Of a stretch of DNA of 64,000 nucleotides, positions 4,192-46,755 are shown one piece after another. Within the stretch, counting starts at the first letter, position 1, and every line of letters starts with the position of its first letter. A program made the translations under genes and the position numbers. Under the pieces are notes generated by a model. It did no database searches. It was not told the origin of the DNA and saw only the letters and a program-made list of their open reading frames with translations. Where the stretch lies: contig JBFKLX010000002.1 of the NCBI GenBank assembly GCA_041630155.1, positions 3,769 to 67,768 on the forward strand, given 5' to 3'. The DNA is from Acidobacteriota bacterium (GTDB lineage Bacteria; Acidobacteriota; UBA6911; RPQK01; JANQFM01).

Positions 4192-4321
4192 TTCTCCTCT
4201 ACCGCAGGATTGGGGACGGCACCGTCAAAGCCGTGTCCCGGAGCCTCAAATCCAACCGACTCGCGACCGACCGACCCATTCGGATTTGGCGGCGACGGGC
4301 GCGACCGTTTCAGCCCACACA

Positions 4322-19706: not shown

Positions 19707-20210
19707 TCAGCCAGGGCGGAAAGCCGGAATTCCCTCTTCGGCGCCAAACAAAGGCTGGACCTCACGTTTGGCGGCTTCCGCCAGGCTGCGATTGGCCTCC
19801 TCGAAGCCGAGCCGTTCGAACGCCTCGATGGTCTGCTGGATCACCCCGTCGGCGGAAATCCAAAAACTGGTGGGAACGAACTCAACCCCATAGGACTCGC
19901 TGACCGTGAAGGGCTCCGGCTCGACCAGGATGGGCATCCGGATCTGATAGTCCTCCCGGAAACGGCAGGCATCGGCGACGGAATCCTGCAGCACCAGCAC
20001 CACCGAAGCCCCCTGCTGCCCGTAGTTCTGGTGGAGCCGGTCCAACAGGGGCAGGCACCACTGGCAAGTCGGGCAGGAGCTCTTGGCAAAGATGACCAGC
20101 GCGGGACCCCTGGCCAACAGCCCTTGCAGATCACAGCGGGCTTCTCTTCCCTCGGGTCGCGTCTCTTCCAATTCGAAATGGGGCGCTTCAGCTCCCGTTC
20201 CGAGCGTCAT
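19707..20210 (-). CDS. TlpA-like thioredoxin-fold thiol:disulfide oxidoreductase
   Basis: The CxxC active site 'SSCPTCQ' sits in a thioredoxin-like context. Confidence 0.65.
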   Translation of the reverse strand: MTLGTGAEAPHFELEETRPEGREARCDLQGLLARGPALVIFAKSSCPTCQWCLPLLDRLHQNYGQQGASVVLVLQDSVADACRFREDYQIRMPILVEPEPFTVSESYGVEFVPTSFWISADGVIQQTIEAFERLGFEEANRSLAEAAKREVQPLFGAEEGIPAFRPG

Positions 20211-21386: not shown

Positions 21387-23252
21387 ATGACTCGTCAGAA
21401 CACGGTCGCTTCTTATTCCGCTGAAAAGATTGAAGCCCTGGAAATCATGGCCAACCGCCTGCGCCGCCACTCTCTGGTGTCGACCAGCGAGGCCGGCTCC
21501 GGTCATCCGTCCACCTGTTTTTCGTGCGCGGAGATCGTGGCGGGGCTCTTTTTCCATACCCTGCGCTTCGACGTTCCCAACCCGGACAACCCGCTCAACG
21601 ACCGCTTCGTGCTCTCCAAGGGACACGGGGCGCCCATTCTCTGGGCCGCCTGGGCCGAAGCCGGCGCGTTTCCCCGCCAGAAACTGTTGACTTTGCGCCA
21701 GATCGACAGTGAGCTGGAAGGGCACCCAACGCCGCGCAGCCCCTGGGTCGACGTGGCCACCGGCTCTCTCGGCCAGGGCCTCTCGATCGCATTGGGGATG
21801 GCCATCAGCGCTCGAATGGACGGACTGGACAATCAGATCTACGTGCTCACCGGCGATGGCGAACTGGCCGAGGGGGCCGTCTGGGAAGCCGCCATGCTGG
21901 CCAGCTATCGCGGCCTGGACAATCTGACCGCGATTCTGGACATCAATTGCTACGGGCAGAGTCAGGCCACCATGTACGGCCACGACACGGGTGCCTACCA
22001 GCAGCGTTTCGAGTCCTTTGGCTGGGAGACCGAAGTGATCGACGGCCACGACATCGAACAGGTGATCACGGCGCTCGACCGCGCCGCCGCCCATCGCGGG
22101 AGTCCCTACGCCATCGTGGCCGGGACGCTCAAAGGAAAGGGCGTCTCGTTCATGGAAGACCGGGACGGTTGGCACGGCAAGCCGGTCGCCAAGGACGGCC
22201 AGTTCGCCGAGGCGTTGCGGGAACTGGGCGACGATCGGGATTTGCCAACCGAGCTGAAGGTGACGCCGCCCCAGGGCGCCGCTCCCCAGTCTTCGGCGCC
22301 GCGACCGGTGGAGCCCCCCGATTTTGCGCCCGATGAGAAGCTGGCCACCCGGCAGGCCTATGGCAAGGCCCTGGCCAAGCTCGGACACGCCAACCCTCGT
22401 GTGGTCGCACTGGATGGAGACACCAAGAACTCCACCTACTCCCAGGACTTTCTGGCGGAGCATCCCGACCGCTTCGTGGAGTGTTTCATCGCCGAGGGCA
22501 ACATGGTGGGCGTCCAGGTGGGACTGAGCGCTCTCGGCAAGATCCCGTTTGCCTCAACCTTCGCCTGCTTCCTGACTCGCGCCTACGACCAGATCCGCAT
22601 GGGCGCGATCTCACAGGCCAACCTGAAGCTCTGCGGTTCTCACTGCGGAGTGTCCATCGGCGAGGACGGACCCTCACAGATGGGCTTGGAGGACCTGGCG
22701 ATGATGCGGGCCGTGGCAGGTTCGACCGTACTCTACCCTTCCGATGCCGTCTCGACCCAGCGGCTGGTCGAATTGGCCGCCAGCACTCCCGGCATCGTCT
22801 ACATTCGCACGACCCGTCCCAAGACCCGGCTCCTCTACAAGAGCAGCGACTCGTTCCAGGTAGGAGGCAGCAAGGTGCTGCGCAGCTCTTCACAGGACAA
22901 AGCGACCGTCGTGGCCGCCGGCATCACCCTGCACGAAGCCTTGCAGGCAGCCGACCTGCTGGCCGCCGAAGGCACTCAGGTCCGCGTCATCGACCTTTAT
23001 TCGGTCAAGCCCGTGGACGAAGCCACCCTCCTCGAGGCCGTTCGGGACACCGGCGCCATCGTCACCGTGGAAGACCACTATCCCGAAGGGGGCTTGGGCG
23101 ACGCCGTGCTGGGAGCCATCGGCGGCCAGTCCTTCCGCTACCGCAAATTGGCGGTCAGCGGACTCCCCCGCTCCGGTCCGGCTCAGCAACTCCTGAAGAC
23201 CTTTCAGCTGAGCGCCTCAGACATCGCGGCCGCCGTCAAGGCGTTGCTTTGA
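21387..23252 (+). CDS. tkt: Transketolase (single-chain short form, about 620 aa)
   Basis: 'GHPS', 'LSKGHG', 'GSLGQGLS' and '[10 protein letters not shown]' are TPP-binding motifs. The Pyr and C-terminal domains are present. Confidence 0.85.
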
Positions 23253-23652
23253 GCCGCCCCGCAGCGGCCCCTTCGCCCGAACCCAACCATCCGCGCGGCG
23301 GCCTGGCGTGCTTCCCCTCGCCGAAGTCCCGGCCAGGCGGCGGGGCATCGTTCTTTGCGGGTGGGGCCGGCGGGTTTTTTCGAGTCGGCGCCACCCTCAC
23401 CCGCTCCTCCAGCTTTTCGAATTTCTTCTCCCCGATGCCCCGAACATTCAGCAGGTCCTCGATCTTGCCGAAGCGACCGTTCTTCTCACGGTACTCCAGG
23501 ATTCGCTCCGCCAAGGCGGGACCGATGCCGGGCAAAGACAGCAGCTGACTGAGGCTGGCTTCGTTCAGGTCGATCTTGGGCTGGGGCCCGGCCCAGCACA
23601 AGGACATCACCAACAGCACGATCGGACCCGGGAACATCATGGTTCGTCTCAT
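23236..23652 (-). CDS. comEA: ComEA-like helix-hairpin-helix DNA-binding competence protein
   Basis: TM/signal segment, then '[35 protein letters not shown]...[17 protein letters not shown]', a tandem HhH. The start is placed at MRRTMM (M18 of the track ORF). Confidence 0.75.
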
Positions 23653-23824
23653 TTTCGGCCTCCTCTCGAGGCGCCGCGGAATTGCGCCGCCTTCTTCATC
23701 CATTACGTCTCAGGTCGAAAATGAGCGAAATCTGGGAATCCCAAGCCCGAGGCTCGCGCCTGCAAGCGAGGTCCCACGTCACGAAGCGGAATCTTCAGGG
23801 AAACAGCGGCGAACAGCGCAGGGC

Positions 23825-24616
23825 TCAGCCGATCCAGCCGAAGTACCAACTCAGCAGGTCGTTTCCCCAAAGCACCGAAGCCATGGCCCCGGCGGCCAGA
23901 AAGGTCCCGAACGGGAGTTCGTAGAGGCGCCCCTTGCCCAAGGTGAGGATATAGGCGGCACCCAGCAGGGCTCCTGAAAGGGAGCCCAGCAGGATCGTCA
24001 ACCAGGCCATCCGCCAGCCCAGGAAGGCTCCGACCATGACCATCATCTTGATGTCCCCGAAGCCCATCCCCTCGATCTTTTTGAGCCGAAAGTAGAGCCA
24101 GGCCACCAGCCAGAGCATGCCCCCTCCGAAGACCGCTCCCAGGACACTGTTGAACAGTTGCGACGCGGCCGAGCCGCCTCCCAGGAACTCGGAAGCCTGC
24201 CAGGGCGCCGCCAGCAAACCGGCGGCCGCCCCGCTGAAGGTGATCAGATTGGGCAGCAGCCTCTCGAACAAGTCGATGAACATCAAGACGATCAGGAGGC
24301 AGAAGAACACAGCGTTGACGGCGAACACGACCGACAGCCCGAACTTCCAGTGCAGCAGCAGCAGGCAGCCTGCCGTCAGAAGCTCGACGACCGGATACAC
24401 CCAGCTGATAGCTGCCTGGCATCCGCGGCAGCGGCCCCTCAGGAGCAGATAGCTGAGGACGGGAATGTTCTCCCAGGCGCGGATCAAGCGCCCGCAGTGC
24501 GGGCAGCTGGAGCGAGGGGTGACGACCGACTGGCTTCGGGGCAGCCGGTGGATGCAGACGTTGAGAAAACTCCCGATCACGAGCCCGAACAGGACCACGG
24601 CCAGCGGCGTCAACAT
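23825..24616 (-). CDS. pilD: Prepilin peptidase (type IV leader peptidase/N-methyltransferase, A24 family)
   Basis: 'GLVIGSFLNVCIHRLP', the 'CPHCG...CRGC' zinc tetracysteine, and a multi-TM region carrying catalytic Asp residues. The start is placed at M23 of the track ORF. Confidence 0.9.
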   Translation of the reverse strand: MLTPLAVVLFGLVIGSFLNVCIHRLPRSQSVVTPRSSCPHCGRLIRAWENIPVLSYLLLRGRCRGCQAAISWVYPVVELLTAGCLLLLHWKFGLSVVFAVNAVFFCLLIVLMFIDLFERLLPNLITFSGAAAGLLAAPWQASEFLGGGSAASQLFNSVLGAVFGGGMLWLVAWLYFRLKKIEGMGFGDIKMMVMVGAFLGWRMAWLTILLGSLSGALLGAAYILTLGKGRLYELPFGTFLAAGAMASVLWGNDLLSWYFGWIG

Positions 24617-24822
24617 CCGCCGATTATACCGTGACCGGTTGGTGACTCCGGCCTCCCGGCCGACGATTCCCGGAAAGGGCACGCCCAGACGGCTCGAGCC
24701 TCAACCTTTTCGCGAACTGGGACCCGGGGAGAGGCGCCGCCCACACCCGGGCGAGGAGGAAGGAGGTGGGGGGAGAACAGGCCTCAGGAGGCGATGGCTC
24801 ACCCCCTGAGGCAACACGATGA

Positions 24823-26043: not shown

Positions 26044-27633
26044 ATGAAGATCCTCAACGTCGAGCAAATGACCGAGGTCGACCGGCTGAGCACCGAGAAG
26101 TGCGGGATTCCCTCTCTGTTGCTGATGGAAAACGCCGGCATGAACCTCTTCCGGGCATTGCGGCACACATTCCGCGAACACTTGTCCGCACAGCGCATCC
26201 TGATCCTGTGCGGCAAGGGCAACAACGGCGGCGACGGGCTGGTTCTGGCCCGCCAGCTGGTCCAGCGCGGCATGGAGCCTCGCGTGGTACTGCTGGGACG
26301 ACGCCAGGAGGTCAAAGGAGACGCCGCAGCCAACCTGAACATCTTTCTGGAATCCGGACAGCCGGTCCAGGAAGTGGACTCCCTCGAAGCGTGGCGGGGC
26401 ATCCAACCCGAGATGGCTCGAGCCGACGTGATCGTGGATGCGCTGCTGGGCACGGGACTCGGCAAGCCCCTGCGCGACTTGTATGCCGAGGCAGTCCGCT
26501 CCATCAATCAGAACCGCGCCTTCGTTCTGGCAGTCGACATTCCGACCGGTATGTTTTCCGACTCGCTGGAGCCAAGTCCACTGTCGGTCCAGGCCGATCT
26601 GACGGTAACCTTCACGGCGCCCAAGATCGCCCACGTGTTCAACCCCGACCAAGCAGCTATGGGCCGCGTAATCGTGGCGCCCATCGGGAGCCCGGAGTGG
26701 CTCATGGACCGGCCCGAATACTACCTCCAGCTGCTGGAGCCGGAGGAACTGTCCGAACTTCTCACCGACCGCCCCCTGGACACCCACAAGGGAGCTCTGG
26801 GGAAGGTCGCGGTGATCGGCGGCAGTCGCGGCAAAGCAGGTGCGGCCGCCCTGGCAGCTTCGGCTGCTCTCCACGCCGGCAGCGGCCTGGTGACCGCCCT
26901 GGTTCCGCGCGGCGCTCAAGGTCTGGTCGCCTCGTTCCTGCCCGACATCATGACCGAGGGGCTGCCGGAAACCGACAGTGGCGGCTTCAACCGGGAGGCC
27001 GCATCTCCAGTCCTCGAGATCCTGGCGCACATGAACGCGGCAGCATTGGGGCCGGGACTCGGTACTCATCCTGAGAGCTTCGACTTCGTGCGGGAGCTGG
27101 TCACTCACTCACCCGTGCCGCTGGTTCTGGACGCGGACGCCCTCAACGCCCTCGCTCAGGACCCCAGCAAGATCCGGAACGACAAGGGCCAGCCGCTGGT
27201 CCTCACCCCCCACCCCGGCGAATTCGGACGCCTGATCGGACGCCGCACCAGCGAGCTGCTGCCCGACCGGATCCGGCTCTCCAGAAACTTCGCGCGCCAG
27301 CACGGCGTTTGGCTCGTTCTCAAGGGCTTCCGAAGTTTGATCGCGGAGCCGGGAGGACAGGTCTACGTCTGTGACCGGGGGAATCCCGGAATGGCTACCG
27401 GCGGCATGGGCGATGTCCTCAGCGGGGTGCTGCTGCGCCACCTGGGGGAGCTGGATGCGCGCGGTTGGAACCTGCCCGAAGAGGTGACCTGGCCCGTGGC
27501 GCTGGGGGTCTACCTGCACTCGGCCGCCGGCGACCTGGCGGAAGAAGACCTGGGCCCGGAGAGCCTGACCGCCTCGGCTCTGATCGAGTACCTGGGCGAG
27601 GCTGCGCGCCAGCTGCGTGAGTCCTCCTCATGA
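26044..27633 (+). CDS. nnr: Bifunctional NAD(P)H-hydrate repair enzyme (epimerase/ADP-dependent dehydratase)
   Basis: The YjeF-N domain shows 'CGKGNNGGDGLV'. The YjeF-C carbohydrate-kinase domain shows 'GGSRGKAGA', 'THPGE' and 'GMATGGMGDVLSG'. Confidence 0.9.
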   Translation: MKILNVEQMTEVDRLSTEKCGIPSLLLMENAGMNLFRALRHTFREHLSAQRILILCGKGNNGGDGLVLARQLVQRGMEPRVVLLGRRQEVKGDAAANLNIFLESGQPVQEVDSLEAWRGIQPEMARADVIVDALLGTGLGKPLRDLYAEAVRSINQNRAFVLAVDIPTGMFSDSLEPSPLSVQADLTVTFTAPKIAHVFNPDQAAMGRVIVAPIGSPEWLMDRPEYYLQLLEPEELSELLTDRPLDTHKGALGKVAVIGGSRGKAGAAALAASAALHAGSGLVTALVPRGAQGLVASFLPDIMTEGLPETDSGGFNREAASPVLEILAHMNAAALGPGLGTHPESFDFVRELVTHSPVPLVLDADALNALAQDPSKIRNDKGQPLVLTPHPGEFGRLIGRRTSELLPDRIRLSRNFARQHGVWLVLKGFRSLIAEPGGQVYVCDRGNPGMATGGMGDVLSGVLLRHLGELDARGWNLPEEVTWPVALGVYLHSAAGDLAEEDLGPESLTASALIEYLGEAARQLRESSS

Positions 27634-28058
27634 CGCTCCACAGCCGGGACGCGGCCCAGACCCGCCAGCTGGGCGAACGAATCGGCCGCCTTCTCGAGCC
27701 TCCTCGGACCGTCCTGCTCGAGGGCCCGCTGGGAAGCGGCAAGACGGTCCTGACGAAAGGCCTGGTGGCCGGCCTGGGAGGCGACCCCGAGCTGGTCACC
27801 AGCCCCACCTTCGCACTCGTCAACCGGTACCCGCTGCCCGCCGGAATCTGCTACCATCTGGACCTCTACCGGCTCGAAACCGTCCGCGACCTCTATTCGA
27901 TCGGAATCGAAGAAATCCTGGGCGAGCAAGCCATCGTGGTCGTCGAATGGGCCGAGAAACTCCCCCTCACCGTCCAACACCCGCTGCGGATCCGAATCAG
28001 AGCGGAAGGAAACCAGCGCTGGTTCGAAATCGAGCCGCCCTTGGACGAATTGAGGTGA
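27630..28058 (+). CDS. tsaE: tRNA threonylcarbamoyladenosine biosynthesis ATPase TsaE
   Basis: 'LEGPLGSGKT' is a P-loop; 'SPTFALVN.Y' is a TsaE/YjeE signature. The start overlaps the nnr stop. Confidence 0.85.
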   Translation: MTLHSRDAAQTRQLGERIGRLLEPPRTVLLEGPLGSGKTVLTKGLVAGLGGDPELVTSPTFALVNRYPLPAGICYHLDLYRLETVRDLYSIGIEEILGEQAIVVVEWAEKLPLTVQHPLRIRIRAEGNQRWFEIEPPLDELR

Positions 28059-28250
28059 ACACGGTCCAGTCGTGAGGCGGGAATTCTTGCCGGTAATCGG
28101 ACCCTTCCCCGGCGGCTGGCGGAGGCCCCGCAGAAAAAAAGATTTTCACCCCAGCTCAACAACACAAACTATTGACGCAGAACGTCTTCCAGTGAATTCC
28201 GGAACCGCGATCCCGCCTCGGGACTTCGTGCACTTCAGATCTCGGACGTA

Positions 28251-28838
28251 ATGGTGAACAGGAAGGATGAGCCGATGAGTTGGGACCTCGAGCACGAATC
28301 CTGGATTTGCAGACGGAGAACCCCTCCAGCGGACCTCCCGAAGGTGGATCGGCCTCGGGGCAGCCCGAAGGCGCCCGCCGGCCCCCCCTCGTTGACAGCC
28401 GCCCGGCGTCCCCAGCAGCACGGGTTCCAGTTGTTGGATCTCATGCTCACCTGCCTGCTGGTGGCCTTCTTGGCCGTCTCGGGTCTTCCCTTCCTGCGAG
28501 ACCTGTCCCTGCAGCAGAAACAAGTGGCCGCCTGCGATCTGTTCGTGTCGACGCTCTCCCAAGCGCGTTCCCTGGCGATTTTCCGCAACCTCCCCGTGGA
28601 GGTGCTGGTCGAGCCGCCGGGACGTTTCGCCTCGAGCGCGCGCTTCGAGGGTGAGCCAATCGTCTGGCGTCTTCTGCCCGAGCCGGTCGTCTTCCAACAA
28701 TTTCCGCGCCGATCCGTGACCTTTCACCCGCGGGGGACCGCTGCGCCCGGCGGGACCTTCGTCCTCAGCACGGGCCGGGGCGGTTTCAAGATCGTTGTCG
28801 CGGTCTCCGGCCGCATACGCTGGAGCCGGCTGCGATGA
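28251..28838 (+). CDS. gspH: GspH/FimT-like minor pseudopilin (prepilin-type N-terminal domain)
   Basis: Prepilin cleavage motif 'G|FQLLDLMLTCLLVAF' (Asp at +5). The C-terminus 'VTFHPRGTAAPGGTFVL' resembles the GspH/FimT beta-domain. The true start may be an internal TTG that would give an 11-residue leader. Confidence 0.6.
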   Translation: MVNRKDEPMSWDLEHESWICRRRTPPADLPKVDRPRGSPKAPAGPPSLTAARRPQQHGFQLLDLMLTCLLVAFLAVSGLPFLRDLSLQQKQVAACDLFVSTLSQARSLAIFRNLPVEVLVEPPGRFASSARFEGEPIVWRLLPEPVVFQQFPRRSVTFHPRGTAAPGGTFVLSTGRGGFKIVVAVSGRIRWSRLR

Positions 28839-28860
28839 GAAATCAGCGAAGGTCAGAAAG

Positions 28861-29208
28861 ATGAGTTTCTCAGTACTCACGCGGCCAGCGGGGAATCCCG
28901 GCACGAGGCGCAGGGCCGGCTTCAGCCTTCTGGAAGTGCTCATCGCGGCTTCGCTGTTCACCGTGGCGGCGGGAGTTCTCCTCCATGAACTGGCCTTCTC
29001 CTACCGCCACTACAGCCTGGCTCGAGACGACTGGAAAGCTGCTTTGGAGCTCTGGAATCGAGCCGGTCGTTGGCGGGCCGGGGGTACTACCAGCACGTCC
29101 GAGAACGCCCAGATCCGGGGCCGAACAGCGCCCCTGCACCGGATCCGCTTCGAAACCGCGAGCGCCGGTCGAACTCTCACCTGGGAGGTGTGGCATGTTC
29201 ATCCCTGA
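28861..29208 (+). CDS. gspI: GspI-like minor pseudopilin
   Basis: Leader 'MSFSVLTRPAGNPGTRRRAG' followed by 'FSLLEVLIAASLF', a canonical G|F..LE prepilin N-terminus. About 115 aa, matching GspI size. Confidence 0.65.
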   Translation: MSFSVLTRPAGNPGTRRRAGFSLLEVLIAASLFTVAAGVLLHELAFSYRHYSLARDDWKAALELWNRAGRWRAGGTTSTSENAQIRGRTAPLHRIRFETASAGRTLTWEVWHVHP

Positions 29209-29824
29209 ATTGCCCCCATGCACAGCCGGTTGCGAGCCATCGAGCTCACCCTCCGCTCCCGGCGGTTCGGCCTCAATCGGGGCTTCTCTGGTGGAATTAC
29301 TGGTCGCTCTGGGTCTCTCGATTCTCTTGTCAACGGCTCTCCTTTCCTGGGTTTGGAGTTATCAGCAGTGGAGCGGCCGGCTGAGCCGTGCCCTGGAAAG
29401 AGACGAGAACCTGCGTCTGGCGCCCGTCCTGCTGGCCGGTTACCTGTCTGGGGCCGGCAACCAGCGCTGGCGCCACGGCTGGCCCGGGCTGGAATGGACC
29501 GGGGCTGGGCTCCACGTTCAGGCCGACATCGAAGGCCCGAACGGGTTTCCCGACGGGAAGTTGGAGGGACGATTCGAGCGCTTCTGGCTTCGTCAGCAGG
29601 GGCACCAGTTCCGTCTCCGGAGCGGGCGCGGCGGCTACCAGCCCCTCCTGACTCGCGTCTCCGGCTGGGCAATCGACCGGCCCACATCCCAGCTGCTGAA
29701 GGTCAGCGTTCAGGGGCGGGCCCTGGCGGCTCCGGGGCAGAGCCGGGTGGGGCTGGACGAGAGCCTGCAACTGGAGTTCTTCCTGCCCAACTTCCGTTCC
29801 AGCCTGTTCCCGGAGGAGCCATGA
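29195..29824 (+). CDS. gspJ: GspJ-like minor pseudopilin
   Basis: 'G|ASLVELLVALGLSILL' is a prepilin-type N-terminus with Glu+5. About 209 aa. The start overlaps the upstream gene's stop. Confidence 0.6.
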   Translation: MFIPELPPCTAGCEPSSSPSAPGGSASIGASLVELLVALGLSILLSTALLSWVWSYQQWSGRLSRALERDENLRLAPVLLAGYLSGAGNQRWRHGWPGLEWTGAGLHVQADIEGPNGFPDGKLEGRFERFWLRQQGHQFRLRSGRGGYQPLLTRVSGWAIDRPTSQLLKVSVQGRALAAPGQSRVGLDESLQLEFFLPNFRSSLFPEEP

Positions 29825-31122
29825 GGGCATCCCACACCGCTGGCACAGCCGGCCTCCGCTTCACCGACCCCATTCGGCGCCAGATCGGCGCCCGGAGGAA
29901 AGAGCTGGAATCCGGCTTCAGTCTGATCACCGTTCTCCCCTGGATCGTCCTGCTGGGACTCGTGGCGCTGCTCCTCCATCTGAGGCTGCTGGGGCATCTG
30001 GAATCTCTGCCGGCCTCCGAGCGCCAGCTCTACAGCCTGGTCGTGGCCCACAACGGGATCGAGTACGCCCGCTCCGTGCTGCCACTGCTGGAATTGAACA
30101 GTTTGCTGAAAGGTCAGGATGGACGACACGCCGGAACGAACGTCCCGGAATGGCGCAATCCCCTCCCCTGGAGCAGAGCTCGAACCACCGATCCGGCCCG
30201 GATCCGACTCACCCCCGACGACGGATTGCCGTGGGGCCCACCCGAAATCGAGCTGGGCGCCCACCACCGCCTGGCCGGCAACGGCCACTTCTTCATCCGG
30301 TTCAGCAACAACCCGGAGGAGCCTCCGGATGAAGACCGCGACGGGATCGTGGTGGTTCGCAGTCTGGGTGTGGCAGCGGGCCGGCTGCCGAACCTCTCGC
30401 TGGGGCGCGTCGTGCACAGTACCTCCCTGGTCGAAGCCCGGCTGCGTCAGGAGCGGGTCTTCCAGTCCCCCTCGGCCGTGACTCTCCTGGGCGAGAGCGG
30501 TCGCTTCCAGTGGGAGGGAGAAGACTTCGAAATCCGCGGGGGCGTGCGCGCCGCCATCAGCCTGGTGGCTCCCGGCGTCGGCCCCCAGCTGGAGGGTGAC
30601 CTGGCGGGCTCCCTCTCAGAGGCTCAGCGATCGCGAATCGGAGGCCGACAGATCCGCGCCTGGGCCGACGAAACGGCAGTTTTCAGCGTCCACCCTCATT
30701 GGAAACGGCTCTTCAGCACCCGTTTCTGGGAGCATTTCGAGCAACACCTGCCGGAATTCAGCGAGCCCGCCATTCCCGGCCTGCGATTCCTGCCTGCGGG
30801 CGGCGAGTTGCAAGGCCGGTTTCACGGGGTCCTGGTGGCTCAGGGATCTCTGCGGCTGACGGGAACCGCGCGCGTTCGCGGGCTGGTCGTGCATTTGGGC
30901 GGAGGGATCGTCGCACTGGAAGATGAGGCGCAATTGACGGGTGCACTGTGGATGCGGGCCTCGAACGGGTCCGCCACAGGAGCAGTATCCGGCAGAATTC
31001 GGCTGAGGATCGCCGGAAACGCCAGGATCATCTTCGATTCCCGAGCGATGAGCGAGGCGCTGTGGCTCTTGCCGCCCACCCAGTTGGGCTGGCGGATTCT
31101 CTTTCCGGAAATGGCTCTTTGA
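29821..31122 (+). CDS. gspK: GspK/PilX-like large minor pseudopilin
   Basis: 'G|FSLITVLPWIVLLGL' is a prepilin-type N-terminus that lacks Glu+5 (Thr instead), the hallmark of GspK. ATGA start/stop overlap with the upstream gene. The first 200 codons of the 29218 track ORF lie in the wrong frame and are excluded. Confidence 0.6.
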   Translation: MRASHTAGTAGLRFTDPIRRQIGARRKELESGFSLITVLPWIVLLGLVALLLHLRLLGHLESLPASERQLYSLVVAHNGIEYARSVLPLLELNSLLKGQDGRHAGTNVPEWRNPLPWSRARTTDPARIRLTPDDGLPWGPPEIELGAHHRLAGNGHFFIRFSNNPEEPPDEDRDGIVVVRSLGVAAGRLPNLSLGRVVHSTSLVEARLRQERVFQSPSAVTLLGESGRFQWEGEDFEIRGGVRAAISLVAPGVGPQLEGDLAGSLSEAQRSRIGGRQIRAWADETAVFSVHPHWKRLFSTRFWEHFEQHLPEFSEPAIPGLRFLPAGGELQGRFHGVLVAQGSLRLTGTARVRGLVVHLGGGIVALEDEAQLTGALWMRASNGSATGAVSGRIRLRIAGNARIIFDSRAMSEALWLLPPTQLGWRILFPEMAL

Positions 31123-31284
31123 CGATCACGCGTCGCGCGCGACGAGGCCGAAAAGGCCACAAGACGCCCCACTGAAGTTCGGCCCTGCAGGCAGGCATGC
31201 CTTGCGCCGAAAGGCCGGGCACTGCGCCGCGGCTGGAAATCTGTGATCACAGCCCGCCATCCAATAGGATATAATCGGCCCATT

Positions 31285-31950
31285 ATGAGGTGGATTCTTC
31301 TGGCAATTCTGGCACTGTCAACCGCGCTCCCGGCCCAGAGCAGCTCCCAGAGCTCCCAGGATGAGAAGCAGCAGCCTTCGCTGGCGGAACTCGCGAAAGC
31401 TGCCCGCGAGCGCAAGCAGAAAGCGGCAGGCGGCACCCGTGTCATCACCAATTCCGACTTGAAGTCGATGCGAGCCAACGTCTCGACGGGCACCATCCCG
31501 ACCCCGGCCACTTCCGACACGGAAGACGTCTCCGAGGAAGCTGGTGAAGGGACCGAAGGCGAAGAAGCTCTGCCTTCGGCGGCTCCGGGCGAGCTCACGG
31601 AAGAGGACTTGGCACGCTGGCGTGAAGCCTTCGGTGAGGCTCGAGAGAATCTGCAGAACGCGGTCAGCGAGAACTTGGTCCTTCAGCTGCGCATGAACAA
31701 TCTCCGCAACGCTTACCTGCGGCAGGCCGACGGCTCCACCCAGGAGCGCATCCAAGCCCAGCTGGAAGAGACAGTGCAGGCCCTGGAACAGAACAAGCAG
31801 GAACAGGAGAACGCCCGGCGGGCCATTTCACGACTGCAGACCGACGCACGGCAATCTGGCCTGACCAACCAGCAAATTGACGAGCTGACGGGCCAGCTCC
31901 CAGAGCCCCCACCCGACGTGCTGAGCCCCGAAAGCACCTCGGGATCGTGA
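31285..31950 (+). CDS. Secreted coiled-coil hypothetical protein
   Basis: Signal peptide 'MRWILLAILALSTALPAQS'. The remainder is Glu/Gln-rich and coiled-coil in composition. Confidence 0.45.
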   Translation: MRWILLAILALSTALPAQSSSQSSQDEKQQPSLAELAKAARERKQKAAGGTRVITNSDLKSMRANVSTGTIPTPATSDTEDVSEEAGEGTEGEEALPSAAPGELTEEDLARWREAFGEARENLQNAVSENLVLQLRMNNLRNAYLRQADGSTQERIQAQLEETVQALEQNKQEQENARRAISRLQTDARQSGLTNQQIDELTGQLPEPPPDVLSPESTSGS

Positions 31951-32159
31951 GCGGCGTCTGACGCCGGGCTCTTGGCGCAACAATTCTCCCCTCTGTGAGA
32001 CCGGGATCGCTGCCGCTGTTGCTCTCCGAGAATCTGTCCCGAGCCGTGCCACAGGGTTTGCTGCCCCTGGCGACCGGTGCGCGCCTGCACCAGGCAAAAC
32101 GACTCGGGTTCGGATGTTTCTGGATTGACTTCACGTCGATCCCGATCTGAACGGATCGA

Positions 32160-35009
32160 GTGTCCACGATGGCGAGCCGGCGGACGGTCTCCAATCGGTT
32201 TTCCTGGTCGATCAGGGCCCTGTTGCCCCTGTGTTTGCTCACACCCGCGCCGGCTGCCGGACAAGCCCCGCCCACTCCGACGCTCGTGACCCCGGTCTTC
32301 CTGGGCGGCTTGAACCGAGATCCTCAACTCGGCCTCCGAGAGAGTGTCGGGCAATCCCGGCCTGGCAGCCTCCTCGTTTCCGAAGTCGACTCGGCCGTCG
32401 GCTGGATCAAGGAGGTTCGAGAACTGGGCTTCTCCCGCCCCCAAAGCCCTTTCGGCCAGGCCAAGCAGCTGCAGTGGACGGGCAGTGCAGAGGCCTCCTT
32501 CTCGTTCCAATTCCGGGGACTCGCTCCGCCCCAACTGGCCCGCCGAGCCAACCGGGGTTTTCTCGTCTTCAATTTGAGAGTCACGAGTGAAACACGGACC
32601 GATTTGCGAGTTGGGATCCGCTGCGCAGGCGTCGTCTTCCATTGCCTCACCGAGGTCACCCTCACCACCGAAGACCTTCCGGCCAGGGAGGTCTGGCAGA
32701 CCTTCCGCATCCCCGTTCACCCGCTCCCCCAGTTCACGGTGAGACCTGGACTCTCCCACGACTCCAAGGAACTTCCCCACCAAGGCGGTCAATCCGTCAT
32801 CTCTTTTCGAACTCGAGGCGCCACTCCGATGACGCTCGAATTGGCCTCGGTCCGGCTGGAAAAGTACGCCTCCGGCTGGAGCTTCGCCGAAAGCCGCGCC
32901 TCCGACCTGCTGCCGGAGATGACACTGGCGGAGAAGGTCGGCCAGATGATCATGGTCACCATCGACGCGTCTCCCGACTTCTTTCCCTCGGCGATGGCTC
33001 AATTCGGCCTGGGCGCGACCTTGATGGGGGGCGGCGCGGTTCCCGTGGACGGGGAACGAAACTCCCTGGATCGCACCGTGGAGTCCTTCGCCGCTTCTTT
33101 CGACGCCTTTCAGCGAGGCGCCCTGGCGACCCGGCTGGCCATTCCCGCGCTGAACGGCTGGGATTCGGTCCATGGCGCCTCCAATTCTTCAGGCACCACC
33201 GTGTTCCCTCATCAAATCGGCCTGGGTGCGACTCGAAATTCCGACCTGGTCCGCCGGATTGGCGAGATCACGGCTCGGGAATCGAGGGCTGGCGGTGCAA
33301 ATCTGGCTTTTTCGCCCGTCCTGGACGTGGCACGCGATCAGCGCTGGGGCAGAACCTACGAGAGTTTCAGTGAGGATCCCGAAATCGTCACTCGAATGAC
33401 CAGCCTCATCGACGGCTTGCAGGGGACGAGCGGGGCTGGGGCTGCGGAAGTCCTGGGCCCCCAGGGCGTTCTGGCTACCGCCAAACACTACCCGGGCGGG
33501 GGCTCGACCGACTTCCAGCTCCCCGATGTCTGCCGAGTGGCCGCCGCGCAGTGCCCCGGTTTTCATCAAATGACAACCCTGGACGGTAGAGACTCGACAC
33601 TCTCCGAACAGGATCTGCGAGCCATCCACCTGCAGCCTTTTCAGGAGGCGGTCCGCCGCGCAGTCGGGCTCGTCATGGTTGGCTACAGCGGCTGGAACGG
33701 CCTGGAAGCCCACGCTCACCGCTTCTTGATCACCGACCTGCTGAAAGGGGAACTGGGCTTCCAGGGGGTCGTGCTCTCGGACTGGGACGGCGACGGCGAA
33801 GTCGACCCGGCCAGCCCGCGTGACGGAGCGATCGAAGTAGTCGAGGCCGGGATCGACCTGCTCATGTTGCCCTTCCTCGAGGAGGTCTCGGGCGTGACCC
33901 AGGCCCTCATGACCCAGGTGCCGGAAACCAGAATCGACGACGCCGTCCATCGCATCTTGCAGGCCAAATTCCGCGCCGGCCTGTTCGACATCCCCTTCTC
34001 GCAGCCGGGACTTCGCAGCACTGCCCGATCCGAGGGGCACCTGCAGACGGCCCGTCAGGCCGTTCGGGAGTCACTGGTTCTGTTGAAGAACGACGCAGCC
34101 ACCCTGCCCCTGGCCCCCTCCCGAAAGATCTACCTGGCGGGAAAGGCCGCCGACAACCTGGGAATTCTGCTGGGAGGGTGGAGTCTCACCTGGCAGGGCG
34201 TGATCGACCCGGAAGACCAACGACGCCCCACAGGAACCACCATCCGCCAAGGCCTGGAGCGACTCCTGGGTGCGGACGATGTGATCTTCAGCCCGGACGG
34301 ATCGCTGCCCCTGGCCGGCGCTGAGGCGGGAATCGTGGTGGTGGGCGAGTATCCCTATGCAGAAGGCTGCGGGGATATCGAGAACCGGGTCTGGTGGTGT
34401 CCCTTCGCCAAGCCTCCGCCCACGCCCGGGAGCGTTGTGGTGACCGAGACCAGACCGCCGGGATTCGAGGCAGGTCTGTCGACGCTGCTGCCGCCGTCAC
34501 ACTCCATGAGCCTGGAAACGGACCGGTTCACTCACGTCTTTCCTTCCGGCGTCTTTGCCTCCAGCCCCGTCGAAGCCGACTACCTGATCGACCCCGACTC
34601 GGATTCCCGGCTGGTGGACCGGGTCTGTTCCGCGGTGCATGCAGCCGGAAACCCGTGTGTGGTGATCCTGGTCTCGGGGCGGCCCCTGTTCGTCGACCAG
34701 GAAATCGCGCAGGCGGACGCCTTCGTCGCGGCCTGGCTACCCGGTTCGGAGGGGGGAGACGGCATTGCCCAACTTTTGCTCCAGGACTGCGAGGGCGAGG
34801 TCGCGGCCGGTGACTGTGACTTCACCGGGACACTTTCCCACACCTGGCCCGCCCGCCCGGAGGGATCGGACTCCCCTGCCCTGGACTATCGCCCCCAGAA
34901 CATTTTCGTGGGCCAAAACGGCAGCCTGGACCGGGTTCTCGAGGTCAACGGCCAGCCCCTCCTGGTCGGATACGGGCTCAGCTACGACGGCCCGATCCGG
35001 AGGGATTGA
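32160..35009 (+). CDS. Secreted glycoside hydrolase family 3 protein with a roughly 260-aa N-terminal domain of unknown function
   Basis: Signal peptide. The GH3 N-domain motifs 'LAEKVGQM', 'FPHQIGLGATRN', 'LDVARDQRWGRTYESFSEDP' and 'VVLSDWDGDG' begin about 270 aa into the protein. A GH3 C-domain follows. Confidence 0.8.
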   Translation: MSTMASRRTVSNRFSWSIRALLPLCLLTPAPAAGQAPPTPTLVTPVFLGGLNRDPQLGLRESVGQSRPGSLLVSEVDSAVGWIKEVRELGFSRPQSPFGQAKQLQWTGSAEASFSFQFRGLAPPQLARRANRGFLVFNLRVTSETRTDLRVGIRCAGVVFHCLTEVTLTTEDLPAREVWQTFRIPVHPLPQFTVRPGLSHDSKELPHQGGQSVISFRTRGATPMTLELASVRLEKYASGWSFAESRASDLLPEMTLAEKVGQMIMVTIDASPDFFPSAMAQFGLGATLMGGGAVPVDGERNSLDRTVESFAASFDAFQRGALATRLAIPALNGWDSVHGASNSSGTTVFPHQIGLGATRNSDLVRRIGEITARESRAGGANLAFSPVLDVARDQRWGRTYESFSEDPEIVTRMTSLIDGLQGTSGAGAAEVLGPQGVLATAKHYPGGGSTDFQLPDVCRVAAAQCPGFHQMTTLDGRDSTLSEQDLRAIHLQPFQEAVRRAVGLVMVGYSGWNGLEAHAHRFLITDLLKGELGFQGVVLSDWDGDGEVDPASPRDGAIEVVEAGIDLLMLPFLEEVSGVTQALMTQVPETRIDDAVHRILQAKFRAGLFDIPFSQPGLRSTARSEGHLQTARQAVRESLVLLKNDAATLPLAPSRKIYLAGKAADNLGILLGGWSLTWQGVIDPEDQRRPTGTTIRQGLERLLGADDVIFSPDGSLPLAGAEAGIVVVGEYPYAEGCGDIENRVWWCPFAKPPPTPGSVVVTETRPPGFEAGLSTLLPPSHSMSLETDRFTHVFPSGVFASSPVEADYLIDPDSDSRLVDRVCSAVHAAGNPCVVILVSGRPLFVDQEIAQADAFVAAWLPGSEGGDGIAQLLLQDCEGEVAAGDCDFTGTLSHTWPARPEGSDSPALDYRPQNIFVGQNGSLDRVLEVNGQPLLVGYGLSYDGPIRRD

Positions 35010-35362
35010 GTTCGAGTGTCCCCGTCGGCGCGCGGTTCCCCGCGAAGAGTGGCGTCAGTTGCCGGTTTTTTGCGTCTTCCGAGGCGCCCATCGGTATGAA
35101 TCTTGCAACTAAGTTTTTTAGAGCTCGGCCGCCCGGGCGAGCCGTCCTCTCCGTTGCCGCCGCCGGTTGCCCGGTGAGACTGGGAGCCCGTTCGAGAAAG
35201 GCCGGCCTGAGCTCCCATCGTGGGGAATCGCCCTCGCGGTTGGTCTTACGGGTGAATCCACCCGTAATTGGTCGAGTTGGCCCACGACGCATCGGGCCAA
35301 CTCGGCCCTCGAAGCACCGTGGCTGCCAGCCGCGAGCGAACGATCTGGAACCGAGAACGACC

Positions 35363-35941
35363 ATGCTCGAGATTCGCTTTCATGGCCGAGGGGGACAAGG
35401 GACGGTCGTGGCTTCAGAGATTCTGGCCGTGGCCCTCTTCCAGGAAGGCAAATTCGTACAAGCTTTTCCCGCCTTCGGAGTGGAGCGGCGGGGCGCTCCG
35501 GTGGCCGCTTTTCTCCGTTGTGACGAGCGCCCGATTCGCCTGCGCTGTCAGATTGAAAGTCCCCATCACGTCGTGGTCCTGGACCCCACCTTGATCCGGG
35601 CAGTCGACGTCACGGCGGGACTCCAGCCCGGCGGGAGCTTGTTGATCAACAGCGAATGCCCTCCGGAGAGCTTCGAGGAGTTCCGGGCCGGAGGCTGGCA
35701 GGTCGCCACCGTGAACGCTTCCGGACTGGCGCTCCGGCATCACCTGGGGGCGCGAACACACCCGATTGTCAACACAGCGATCCTGGGGTCTTTTTCCCGG
35801 GTCACCGGAATGGTCGGTTTGAACTCCATCCTGGAGGCGATCGCCAGCGAAGTTCCCCTGCAGCCCGAGGACAACGTCGCAGCTGCACGCGAGGCCTACC
35901 AGGAGGTGCTTTTCGAAGCCGCCCCTGTTTCAGGAGGGTGA
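35363..35941 (+). CDS. porG: 2-oxoacid:ferredoxin oxidoreductase gamma subunit
   Basis: 'HGRGGQG' gamma-subunit motif. About 190 aa. It sits immediately upstream of the delta, alpha and beta subunits. The start is placed at the MLEIRF methionine (residue 120 of the track ORF). Confidence 0.8.
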   Translation: MLEIRFHGRGGQGTVVASEILAVALFQEGKFVQAFPAFGVERRGAPVAAFLRCDERPIRLRCQIESPHHVVVLDPTLIRAVDVTAGLQPGGSLLINSECPPESFEEFRAGGWQVATVNASGLALRHHLGARTHPIVNTAILGSFSRVTGMVGLNSILEAIASEVPLQPEDNVAAAREAYQEVLFEAAPVSGG

Positions 35942-35942
35942 C

Positions 35943-37631
35943 GTGAACCGCGAGACTCGTTTCGCCACCGCATCCGATTTGCCGCCCATGGCAGTGTCCA
36001 GGTCCGATACGACCGCCAACAAGACCGGGAGCTGGAGATATCTGCGGCCGGTGATCCGCGAAAAGCTCGCTCCCTGCCGCCATGCCTGTCCCGCTGGGAC
36101 AGATCTTCCGCGGGTCTTGCGGATGATTGGTGAGGGACGATGGAGAGAGGCCCACCAGCTCATTCTCGAGGAGAACCCTCTGCCTGGCGTGTGCGGCCGG
36201 GTCTGTTACCGCCCTTGCGAAACCGCCTGCAACCGCCGCCACTTCGACGAAGCCGCCTCGATCCAGGCTCTGGAGCGCTTCGTCGCCGACGTCTGTTTCG
36301 ACCTGCCGCCGGAGGCGGCCCAGCCCCAACGCAGGAAAGAGCGTATCGCCATAATCGGCACTGGACCCGCCGGGCTTTCGTGCGCCTATTTTCTGGCCCG
36401 CGAAGGGTTTCCAGTCACCATGATCGAAGCAGCATCGAAACCCGGGGGCATGCTCCGCACGGGAATTCCACGATACCGGCTGCCGCGCCGCGTCCTGGAT
36501 CGTGAAATCGGGAACATTGCCCGGCTCGGCGTCCAGATCCTGCTCGACTGCCGAGTGGGGGAACAGGTCACCCTGCAACAGCTCCAACAGGCCTTCGAGG
36601 CAATCTTCGTGGCCACGGGAGCCCACCGCAGCGTCAGTCTTGATCTCCCCGGGGGAAACCGGGCCAAAATCATGCCGGGGCTGGAGTTTTTGAAGCTGGT
36701 CAACGCCGGCCAGCCTCCCGAAATCGGCAAAGAAGTCCTCGTCATCGGCGGCGGCAATACCGCCATGGACGCCGCCCGCGCGGCCTTACGCCTGCGGAGC
36801 CGGCCGCTGGTCGCTTACCGTCGCAGCAGGGCCGAAATGCCCGCAGTTCCGGACGAGGTCGAGCAAGCCGAAAGCGAAGGCGTCGCGTTCCAGTTTCTGG
36901 CCTCGCCTCTGAGATTGCGGAAACGAAACGGCCGGATCGAGGTGGAGATGATCCGCATGGAGCTGGGCGAAATGGACAGCTCAGGCCGCCCCCGGCCGGT
37001 TTCGGTCCCGGGCTCCGAGTTCACTTTGATCGTCGATTCAGTTCTCGAGGCGGTGGGGGAAGGCTCTGAGCTGGCCGACCTGGCCCAAGGTCTTCTGGTC
37101 TCTGAGAAAGGCTCGCAGGTGCTCAGTGAGAAAGAGTCGCTGCAGTTTCTCGAAGCGGGAGGCCTGTTGGTCGGAGGGGACGCCGCTACCGGCGCCGGCA
37201 CGGTGGTGGAAGCCATCGCCTCTGGAAAGAGGGCGGCGCGTCAGATCGTGAGCCGCTTCTCACGGGAGCGGGAGGTCGTGCGGCCGGCGGAAGAGCCCGG
37301 CACCGGGATCCCGTTTTCCGACCTTCACCTGGAGACCTTCACCCGCAGCCCCCGCAAAGACCCCCCTCATCGAAGCGTGGCCGAGCGAATCGCGAGATTC
37401 ACCGAGGTGGTTGGACCTCTCGACGCCGCGGCAGCTGTGGCCGAGGCGAGGCGCTGCTTCTCGTGCGGGGTCTGCAATCAATGCGACAACTGCTGGGTGT
37501 TTTGTCCCGAAGGAGCGGTTTCCCGAGGCGCGGACGGCTACCGGCTCAACCTCGACTACTGCAAGGGATGTGGGATCTGCGTGCAGGAATGCCCCGGGGG
37601 GGTGATCTCACTGGTCCAGGAGGGACAATGA
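35943..37631 (+). CDS. Fusion protein: GltD/NfnB-like NAD(P)H:FAD oxidoreductase with C-terminal 2x[4Fe-4S] ferredoxin (POR delta-like) domain
   Basis: Collinear with the glutamate synthase small subunit: 'GVCGRVCYRPCETAC', 'ERIAIIGTGPAGLSCA', 'GGMLRTGIPRYRL', 'VLVIGGGNTAMDAARAA', 'GGDAATGAGTVVEAIASGKRAA'. The C-terminus 'CFSCGVCNQCDNCWVFCP...CKGCGICVQECP' carries two CxxCxxCxxxCP ferredoxin motifs. Confidence 0.8.
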   Translation: MNRETRFATASDLPPMAVSRSDTTANKTGSWRYLRPVIREKLAPCRHACPAGTDLPRVLRMIGEGRWREAHQLILEENPLPGVCGRVCYRPCETACNRRHFDEAASIQALERFVADVCFDLPPEAAQPQRRKERIAIIGTGPAGLSCAYFLAREGFPVTMIEAASKPGGMLRTGIPRYRLPRRVLDREIGNIARLGVQILLDCRVGEQVTLQQLQQAFEAIFVATGAHRSVSLDLPGGNRAKIMPGLEFLKLVNAGQPPEIGKEVLVIGGGNTAMDAARAALRLRSRPLVAYRRSRAEMPAVPDEVEQAESEGVAFQFLASPLRLRKRNGRIEVEMIRMELGEMDSSGRPRPVSVPGSEFTLIVDSVLEAVGEGSELADLAQGLLVSEKGSQVLSEKESLQFLEAGGLLVGGDAATGAGTVVEAIASGKRAARQIVSRFSREREVVRPAEEPGTGIPFSDLHLETFTRSPRKDPPHRSVAERIARFTEVVGPLDAAAAVAEARRCFSCGVCNQCDNCWVFCPEGAVSRGADGYRLNLDYCKGCGICVQECPGGVISLVQEGQ

Positions 37632-38794
37632 CCACGCTATCGGCCCAAGCGAAAGTAATGACGGGGAATCACGCCGTCTCCCACGGCGCCCTGCTGTCGC
37701 GCGTGCAGGTGATCTCTGCCTACCCGATCACACCTCAGACGCAAGTCGTCGAACGGCTGGGCCGTTTCTGCGAAGAGGGTCGGCTGGAAGCCCGGTTCAT
37801 CAGAGTGGAGTCGGAACACTCGGCCATGGCGGCCCTGGTCGGCGCCGCCACAGCCGGCGCGCGAACCTTCACCGCCACCTCTTCGCAAGGCCTCGCCCTG
37901 ATGCACGAGATGCTGCACTGGGCAGCCGGGGCCAGGCTGCCGATCGTGATGGCCAACGTCAACCGCGCCCTCGGCCCTCCCTGGTCGGTCTGGACCGACC
38001 AAAACGACAGCCTCTCACAACGGGACACGGGCTGGATGCAAATCTACTGCGAGAGCAACCAGGAGGTGCTCGACAGCCTGATCCAGGCCTACCGGGTCGC
38101 CGAGAAGGTCTCGCTTCCAGTCATGCTGGTACTGGACGCCTTCGTGCTGTCGCATACTGCCGAGCCGGTCTCACTGCCGAACCAGGAGACGGTGGACTGC
38201 TATCTGCCCCCGTACCAGCCCGAGTGGAAGCTGGACATCGCGGACCCGCGCAGCTTCAGCGGCCTCACGACACCGGACACCTACATGGAATTCCGGTTCA
38301 AGATGCAGGAGGCGATGGAGCGAGCGCTGGAAGAGTTCGAAGCTGCCGATGCCGAGTTCCAGGCGCTGTTCGAACGCCGCTACGGCCTGGTGGAAGCCTA
38401 TCGCTGCGAGGATGCAGAGCTGATTCTGGTGACCTCCAGTACCGCCACCAGCACGGCACGAGTCGTCATCGACGAGTTGCGCGAGCAGGGACGTCCCATC
38501 GGGCTGCTGAAGATCCGGCTCTTTCGCCCCTTCCCGGCCCGGCAGGTCCTCGAGGCCCTGTCCACGGCGCGAAAGGTGGCCGTGCTGGACCGGAACATCG
38601 GCTTCGGAGCCGGCGGGATCTTCGCGCAGGAGGTCAAGGCCGCCCTGTACAACCACCTCCAAATCCCGGTCTTCGGCTTCGTGGCGGGACTTGGGGGCCG
38701 CGACATCACACCCGCCGTCCTGCGGGAGGTGATCGACTACGCGACGGATCATGCCCAGCCGGAAGACCTCGTGTGGATAGGGGGAAAGCCATGA
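37628..38794 (+). CDS. porA: 2-oxoacid:ferredoxin oxidoreductase alpha subunit
   Basis: 'VISAYPITPQT' alpha-subunit signature. About 389 aa. ATGA overlap with the upstream gene. Confidence 0.85.
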   Translation: MTTLSAQAKVMTGNHAVSHGALLSRVQVISAYPITPQTQVVERLGRFCEEGRLEARFIRVESEHSAMAALVGAATAGARTFTATSSQGLALMHEMLHWAAGARLPIVMANVNRALGPPWSVWTDQNDSLSQRDTGWMQIYCESNQEVLDSLIQAYRVAEKVSLPVMLVLDAFVLSHTAEPVSLPNQETVDCYLPPYQPEWKLDIADPRSFSGLTTPDTYMEFRFKMQEAMERALEEFEAADAEFQALFERRYGLVEAYRCEDAELILVTSSTATSTARVVIDELREQGRPIGLLKIRLFRPFPARQVLEALSTARKVAVLDRNIGFGAGGIFAQEVKAALYNHLQIPVFGFVAGLGGRDITPAVLREVIDYATDHAQPEDLVWIGGKP

Positions 38795-46710: not shown

Positions 46711-46755
46711 GCCGCTTTGCTTGGGCCTCGGGAAACCACCCTTGTCGAGTGAAAC

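Follow-up and report, generated by a model that had tools for sequence, protein, structure and literature searches.

A conserved four-gene minor-pilin operon of uncultured Acidobacteriota with a previously unannotated family of predicted cap pilins

We analysed a 64 kb window of one Acidobacteriota genome (the window is the whole stretch of DNA presented above; G+C content ~64%). In this window, four co-directional open reading frames (ORFs) on the plus strand fill positions 28251-31122, with called genes at 28275-31122. They are referred to here as P1 to P4. Two of the descriptions below draw on AlphaFold2 (AF2) models, and a slash marks the cleavage site of each prepilin motif.

28275-28838, plus strand: P1, minor pilin of the GspH/FimU family (match to Pfam GspH PF12019 above cut-off; HG/FQLLD, with Asp at +5)
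28861-29208, plus strand: P2, small GspI/PilV/ComGE-like minor pilin of 115 aa (AG/FSLLE; match to N_methyl above cut-off; product on record)
29195-29824, plus strand: P3, minor pilin of 209 aa with a predicted GspJ/PilW-type fold (IG/ASLVE; AF2 model and Foldseek)
29821-31122, plus strand: P4, predicted cap pilin of 433 aa (SG/FSLIT, without glutamate at +5, Glu5; AF2 model, Foldseek match to ComZ)

The evidence presented here indicates that P1-P4 are probably the core minor pilins, i.e. the priming and tip complex, of a filament of the type IV pilus class, with the machine encoded elsewhere. The original prediction had seen a gspH-I-J-K-like operon. A four-gene minor (pseudo)pilin operon in the order H, I, J and cap is indeed present, but the K identity of the last gene was not retained.

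Relatives were compared as loci with their flanks. A scan of one genome per species with P4 yielded 46 loci, and 48 related loci were fetched (L001-L048). All 46 loci are from Acidobacteriota, one of them labelled Aminicenantes, and complete genomes are among the carriers (e.g. OY764083.1, OY760074.1, OZ241897.1, OZ246889.1 and OZ220706.1). The homologues of the window proteins all came from uncultured Acidobacteriota. When the window proteins were searched with tblastn, the P1-P2-P3-P4 block was found in nearly all related loci. Pseudogenes or chance ORFs were rejected as an explanation on the basis of this conservation across 46 species and of the confident folds described below.

The genes are closely packed. 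An overlap of 14 nt joins P2 to P3, and P3 shares ATGA with P4, while a gap of 22 nt lies between P1 and P2, so that the earlier description of four overlapping genes holds for the last two junctions but not for the first. Because the genes are tightly spaced or overlapping, the arrangement fits a single operon. A promoter and terminator scan of positions 27500-32300 gave no promoter-like site ahead of P1, and the lone terminator-like site within the block (30272-30287, inside P4) was no more than shuffled sequences give. No Rfam family or tRNA was detected in the window.

All four N-termini have the features of a class III signal peptide, namely a basic leader whose last residue is Gly and a hydrophobic helix behind it, and these features are conserved in the 46 loci. 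The cleavage motifs are QQHG/FQLLDLML in P1, RRAG/FSLLEVLI in P2, ASIG/ASLVELLV in P3 and LESG/FSLITVLP in P4, and every motif is followed by ~20 hydrophobic residues. Failure of these motifs on careful alignment had been named beforehand as grounds to abandon the prediction; they held across the homologues from the 46 species-level loci. Residue +5 of the homologues is always Glu in P2 and P3 and mostly Glu in P1, as expected of pilin-like proteins. In P4 it is Thr, Ala, Val or Ser and never Glu, which is a known exception among tip subunits such as GspK and PilX. A six-frame search of the 64 kb with a regular expression for prepilin motifs recovered only P2, P3 and two matches in a non-hydrophobic context. 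The expression disallows Gln at +2, and hence P1 was not scored.

P1 matches the Pfam GspH family PF12019, which we take to include FimU, with 31.7-32.8 bits against a cut-off of 21. All 17 of its homologues match this family as well, and 6 of the 17 match N_methyl PF07963. The equivalog models gave scores below their cut-offs: GspH TIGR01708 14.7 bits (cut-off 80) and PpdA PRK10506 26.9 bits (cut-off 158). The E. coli PpdA model was nevertheless the top NCBIfam match, far under its cut-off. Since the equivalog models fail, P1 is classified from its sequence as a member of the GspH family but not as any named orthologue. A comparison of its profile with PDB sequences returned mostly matches to pilin N-terminal helices, plus a weak match to FimU.

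The start of P1 can be placed in several ways. The longest ORF (28251-28838) encodes 195 aa, and the recorded gene call from the ATG at 28275 encodes 187 aa. These upstream starts imply a leader of 49-57 aa, compared with 4-12 residues in many homologues. Alternative in-frame starts are a GTG at 28344, with a 26-residue leader, and a TTG at 28392, with 10 residues before the cleavage-site Gly. Hence, the long leader may be an artefact of the start codon. Against this view, the upstream ATG is the recorded start and is preceded by the better ribosome-binding site (AGGAAGG, 8 nt before position 28275). The atypically long leader that had been pointed out for P1 therefore depends on the start codon chosen, whereas the Asp at +5 is confirmed. 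Asp5 occurs in the window copy and its nearest relatives, and Glu5 in most other homologues.

P2 matches Pfam N_methyl PF07963 with 27 bits (cut-off 21.2), but lies under all curated equivalog cut-offs: gspI TIGR01707 24.7 bits (44.35), ComGE 19.8 (49) and PilV 11.4 (52.2). Within its family, 13 of 16 members match ComGE, 13 match GspI and 11 match PilV, most or all of them under the curated cut-offs. Size, position and weak similarity thus suggest a GspI/PilV/ComGE-like protein. The P2 profile matched PDB sequences mostly through the N-terminal helix of pilins; matches to repeat proteins in the same search were discarded as artefacts.

P3 was assigned largely through its structure model. It has no family match itself, and no GspJ or PilW sequence model was matched by P3 or its homologues. 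N_methyl is matched by 17 of 19 homologues and ComGF, weakly, by 7 of 19. Comparison of the P3 profile with PDB sequences gave mostly matches to pilin N-terminal helices. The AF2 model has a moderate predicted local distance difference test score (pLDDT 74.7) and was built on a shallow alignment of 11 sequences; the word-indexed homologue search gave 2 proteins from the single sequence and 11 from the profile. The leading Foldseek matches in the PDB were XcpW (6utu_E, 5vtm_W), EpsJ (2ret, 3cfi_B), Thermus TTHA1219 (5g23) and GspJ (3ci0_J), with probabilities of 0.92-1.0 and template modelling (TM) scores of 0.33-0.52. The first eight matches were all XcpW, EpsJ or TTHA1219, and GspJ ranked 11th. 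In the model, P3 has the GspJ/XcpW/EpsJ fold.

The AF2 model of P4 is confident (pLDDT 86.6; predicted TM score, pTM, 0.79). The leader of P4 is predicted to be 32 residues long. The model begins with a long N-terminal helix and four antiparallel strands. A strand-rich region with intervening helices comes next, and a short helix leads to the last strand, which is formed by the near-invariant C-terminal motif PPTQLGWRILFPE. As modelled, the strand-rich part that follows the four-stranded sheet is a module of beta-solenoid and helices. The top Foldseek match in the PDB was ComZ of Thermus thermophilus (6QVI; E 5e-4, probability 0.8, TM ~0.2). Next came beta-solenoids of ice-binding proteins (TM ~0.3), FfIBP (4nu2) among them. 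The P4 family profile found nothing among PDB sequences. Because the TM score is low and the profile finds no PDB sequence, the modelled resemblance between P4 and ComZ is regarded as architectural and not as demonstrable homology. P4 is a candidate member of the group of ComZ and PilX proteins that carry a beta-solenoid: the secondary-structure order of the model fits and Glu5 is absent, but the TM score is ~0.2 and sequence similarity is lacking.

The fourth gene had been assigned as GspK, and this assignment was rejected. None of the 39 P4 members matches T2SSK PF03934 or T2SSK_1st PF21687, even at E up to 1, and GspK is absent among the top 50 Foldseek matches of P4, where ComZ comes first and ice-binding-type beta-solenoids follow. 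The observation behind the assignment was accurate, as Glu5 is absent in 39 of 39 P4 members. Its absence had been taken as the hallmark of GspK. However, PilX of type IV pili lacks Glu5 too, and in cyanobacteria all PilX proteins carry the same ice-binding-like solenoid, inserted at a common point (bioRxiv 10.64898/2026.02.12.705559). Hence, the missing residue is not a GspK hallmark.

P4 itself has no Pfam or NCBIfam family match. All 58 homologues from the word-indexed search are unnamed or called "hypothetical", and none has a Pfam domain. An exhaustive profile search extended the family to 382 cluster representatives at E<=1e-3, of which 79 at E<=1e-30, and it includes longer members of 460-586 aa. 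The named relatives are "hypothetical protein" entries from Acidobacteriota and one "pseudopilin PulG". Literature on minor pilins of Acidobacteria and on DUF2572 yielded nothing relevant. P4 thus represents a cap-pilin family in Acidobacteriota without earlier annotation.

The surroundings of the operon contain several further genes of interest:

23236-23703, minus strand: ComEA-like periplasmic helix-hairpin-helix DNA-binding protein (HHH_3 E 8.2e-24), downstream of pilD on the same strand
23825-24682, minus strand: prepilin peptidase of the PilD/GspO type (A24_N_bact E 3.4e-36, Peptidase_A24 E 1.2e-17)
26044-27633, plus strand: Nnr, upstream of the block
27630-28058, plus strand: TsaE, upstream of the block
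31285-31950, plus strand: D235, secreted coiled-coil protein of 221 aa with a signal peptide and without known family, following P4

These neighbours agree with the original prediction, which had placed nnr and tsaE upstream, and a prepilin peptidase and ComEA further upstream on the opposite strand; the latter pair lies 3.6 kb upstream of P1-P4. The usual upstream order in the related loci is an M48 peptidase (minus strand), nnr and tsaE (both plus strand). In 20 loci a prepilin peptidase gene lies no more than 10 kb upstream of the block, and in 14 of those a ComEA-like gene lies beside it. In a few of these 14 loci a Phosphodiest gene stands between the two. To our knowledge, pairing of pilD with comEA is not a standard arrangement. 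The peptidase encoded at 23825-24682 is the enzyme expected to process P1-P4. A functional tie of the operon to nnr and tsaE was considered and rejected, since the block is intact where the upstream side is rearranged: in L009, with a transposase upstream, nnr and tsaE are absent within 8.7 kb upstream, and on the downstream side the block is followed by ubiE, DHQ synthase and thiG genes, matching L001 and L002.

D235 follows P4 in 25 of the 48 fetched loci, often at a distance of only 5-10 nt. The protein combines a conserved SLAELAR-x-ERERR motif with an acidic linker of low complexity and, at the C-terminus, a coiled coil containing VLQLRMNNLRNAY. Searches of Pfam, NCBIfam and the PDB gave no relative, coiled-coil noise alone being returned. 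D235 may be an accessory of the pilin operon.

Insertion sequences hit the block in three genomes (L035:7337-8764, L040:8247-9620, and L046:7980-9572 and 2776-4868). In L035, P1 and P2 are separated by a DDE transposase, and in L040 a transposase replaces P1, P2 and most of P3. In L046, P4 is split by a 531-aa ORF, and the interval from tsaE to P1 holds two more ORFs, one of which has the Walker A motif GEAGTGKT; we suspect that these two are Tn7-like transposition genes.

Genes for the rest of a pilus or secretion machine were sought in the window and in ~10 kb around the homologous loci. As originally predicted, no gene for a major pseudopilin, secretin, ATPase or platform protein lies next to the operon, and none was found among the ~48 scanned ORFs of the window. 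Apart from P1-P4, PilD and ComEA are the only genes of a type IVa or competence pilus in the window. A six-frame scan of the 64 kb found no PilB-type Walker motif, and motif scans of all 48 fetched loci gave no further prepilin and no PilB-type ATPase. GspD, E, F, G and C/L/M were found neither in the window nor near the homologous loci. The operon had been called an orphan on these grounds, as though its position were anomalous. However, minor-pilin operons commonly lie apart from the machine. In E. coli K-12, the four overlapping genes ppdA-ppdB-ygdB-ppdC stand alone between the housekeeping genes thyA and recC with no pilus machine nearby, and Thermus pilA1-3 adjoin comZ. Given the E. coli example, a stand-alone position is ordinary.

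The arrangement of P1-P4 most resembles the Thermus locus pilA1-pilA2-pilA3-comZ (TTHA1217-1220), which also has four pilin genes in the order small pilin, GspI-like, GspJ-like and large cap pilin. In Thermus HB8, TTHA1218 is GspI-like and TTHA1219 GspJ-like, and the next gene, TTHA1220, encodes ComZ (PMC5131608). Genes TTHA1218-1220 are needed for transformation rather than piliation (PMC5131608; PMC6561018). The structure models point to the same two partners, with the P3 model matching TTHA1219 and the P4 model matching ComZ. Moreover, the two structural neighbours of P4, a pilin fold and ice-binding beta-solenoids, are shared with ComZ, for which kinship to both has been reported (PMC6561018). 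Unlike in Thermus, the P4 gene is followed by the unrelated secreted protein D235, and unlike a ComZ homologue, P4 has no detectable sequence similarity to ComZ, at a TM score of ~0.2. With 433 aa against ~550 aa in ComZ, P4 is shorter and its solenoid about half the size. In Thermus, the major pilin gene pilA4 lies downstream of comZ, and the pilus machine is encoded elsewhere.

The operon also resembles fimU-pilV-pilW-pilX of Pseudomonas aeruginosa and ppdA-ppdB-ygdB-ppdC of E. coli, each with four H-, I-, J- and K-equivalent minor pilins and a terminal subunit without Glu5. The E. coli set shares the stand-alone position and overlapping reading frames, and provides the best NCBIfam model of P1. 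Sets of the FimU-PilV-PilW-PilX and PpdA type prime the assembly of type IV pili (bioRxiv 10.64898/2026.02.12.705559). In contrast to proteobacterial PilX and PpdC, which are small and rely on the separate adhesin PilY1, P4 carries a large predicted solenoid, and no PilY1-like gene lies nearby. In this respect P4 recalls cyanobacterial PilX, whose design is consistent with the order of helix, four strands, solenoid and final strand in the P4 model and in which Glu5 is likewise missing. The cyanobacteria are a different phylum, however, and this likeness is drawn from the P4 model and the published description, according to which the PilX solenoid may replace PilY1 as tip plug (bioRxiv 10.64898/2026.02.12.705559).

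From the families named above, a mechanism can be outlined. Each of P1-P4 would enter the inner membrane as a prepilin, whereupon PilD would cut behind the conserved Gly and methylate the new N-terminus. P2 (I-type) and P3 (J-type) would pair via their N-terminal helices, and P4 would be placed on top. Without Glu5 and with the bulky beta-solenoid nothing could be added above it, so that P4 would be the terminal subunit. P1 (H/FimU-type) would connect this cap to the first major pilin. The complex would then prime polymerisation on a platform encoded elsewhere and end at the pilus tip, with the P4 solenoid as its exposed working surface.

The main alternative system is the T2SS (type II secretion system), in which P1-P4 would be a GspH-I-J-K pseudopilus tip and gspD/E/F/G/C/L/M would lie elsewhere. 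They would prime a pseudopilus, short and confined to the periplasm, by which folded exoproteins are pushed through the secretin. Several features agree with this reading. The GspH-I-J-K proteins (E. coli 3CI0, Pseudomonas XcpUVWX) share with P1-P4 the gene order, the sizes of the first three proteins, the fold of P3 and a tip subunit without Glu5. The Pfam family matched by P1 is named GspH, gspI is the best single NCBIfam match of the window P2, the nearest solved folds to P3 are GspJ, XcpW and EpsJ of the T2SS, the absence of Glu5 in P4 recalls GspK, and the prepilin peptidase is common to both systems. However, type IV minor pilins of Thermus and Pseudomonas resemble GspH, GspI and GspJ equally closely (PMC5131608). 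P4 has neither the alpha-domain of GspK nor any T2SSK Pfam domain, and its fold search ranked ComZ first. The conserved neighbour is comEA and not a secretion gene, and none of the 46 loci has gsp genes next to the block. The genes gspH-K are almost always embedded in a gsp operon beside gspG. The architecture of P4, the Thermus-like arrangement and the lack of adjacent gsp genes led us to prefer a type IV pilus, and we consider T2SS membership improbable. A distinct minimal filament had been offered as another option; it would be self-sufficient, either lacking a separate major pilin or built mainly of P1. Its sole support is that no major pilin gene occurs in the window or near the 46 loci. 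P1 is an adapter of the GspH/FimU type and not a major pilin. Such a filament could not do without an ATPase and a platform, nor, in a diderm, without a secretin, and none of these is linked to the operon. All characterised sets of the H-I-J-K type prime a major subunit. We find nothing in favour of a minimal filament and regard it as very improbable.

The suggestion in the original prediction of a priming tip complex with its core encoded elsewhere is the reading that we prefer. Nevertheless, several observations weigh against a type IV pilus complex. That these genomes encode a type IV pilus machine is an assumption: ATPase, platform, secretin and major pilin are absent from the window, and none is annotated within 10 kb in L001, L002 and L009. 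T2SS pseudopilins and type IV minor pilins are indistinguishable by sequence models, and neither P2 nor P3 attains the cut-off of a curated equivalog model. In P1, residue +5 is Asp and the leader, if the called start is used, is unusually long. The match of P4 to ComZ is globally weak, with no sequence similarity to any PDB chain. Lastly, the interruption of the block by insertion sequences in L035, L040 and L046 suggests that it is dispensable in some lineages.

If P1-P4 prime a type IV pilus, the conserved pilD-comEA genes upstream suggest that it is possibly a competence pilus. The resemblance of P4 to ComZ, together with this neighbourhood, led us to the tentative idea that the P4 solenoid may be the receptor of such a pilus for extracellular DNA; by analogy with ComZ this is the most plausible role, but we put it at less than an even chance. 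A more specific version, in which the Acidobacteriota-restricted family of solenoid tip pilins forms with P1-P3, pilD-comEA and perhaps D235 a dedicated DNA-capture tip for natural transformation, is rather doubtful. The same priming complex might instead carry the solenoid as a tip plug or adhesin for surfaces or polysaccharides, acting in motility or attachment. In that case, the presence of comEA nearby would reflect synteny passed on by descent, with no bearing on function. Roles as plugs and adhesins in place of PilY1 have been proposed for cyanobacterial PilX proteins, which share the pilin-plus-solenoid design, and no PilY1-like gene lies near the block. Furthermore, pilD is separated from the block by the M48 peptidase gene, nnr and tsaE. 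These unrelated housekeeping genes are conserved there to the same degree, which looks like plain vertical synteny. The best structural match, however, is the DNA-binding ComZ, and the pilD-comEA pairing upstream is conserved, although neither point is decisive. We consider a plug or adhesin somewhat unlikely, slightly more so than a DNA receptor.

Several other features of the window were recorded. Two family-3 glycoside hydrolases and an amidohydrolase of the Amidohydro_1 family flank the region (11931-14135, minus strand; 20188-21363, minus strand; 32160-35009, plus strand). One of the glycoside hydrolases (949 aa) has an N-terminal galactose-binding-like domain, and the amidohydrolase is putatively NagA-like. 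These hydrolases around the pilin locus hint at turnover of amino sugars or glycans. A 2-oxoacid:ferredoxin oxidoreductase is encoded at 35006-39705 (plus strand) in the order gamma (POR), alpha (POR_N/PFOR_II) and beta (TPP_enzyme_C), with a 562-aa ORF containing Pyr_redox_2, Fer4_20 and Fer4 between the gamma and alpha subunit genes; this ORF is presumably GltD-like. At 46117-47415 (plus strand), two ORFs of 197 and 219 aa without Pfam match immediately precede two fused ABC exporter genes (47390-49147 and 49144-50922), with which they may form one operon. Proteins with ankyrin and Kelch repeats are uncommon in bacteria. The window encodes a 669-aa protein with Kelch-repeat beta-propeller domains (41062-43071, plus strand) and a 575-aa protein consisting almost wholly of ankyrin repeats (58945-60672, plus strand; Ank E 3e-87). 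Finally, a 1071-aa ORF at 60725-63940 (minus strand) has a coding-like codon bias and no Pfam match at E up to 1e-5.

An operon of this kind is in itself ordinary. The added value lies in the unannotated cap-pilin family in Acidobacteriota and in the hint of competence. Names and a testable role can now be given to four genes that are listed as "hypothetical protein" or remain unnamed in dozens of genomes of uncultured Acidobacteriota, and the design of a cap pilin with a built-in beta-solenoid, as predicted for P4, would reach a third phylum beyond Thermus and the cyanobacteria. Acidobacteriota are a major phylum of soils and sediments, abundant but poorly cultivated, and we know of no demonstration of competence among them. 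If the tip indeed binds DNA, the operon would point to pilus-mediated natural transformation in this abundant phylum; otherwise, it would represent routine pilus biology.

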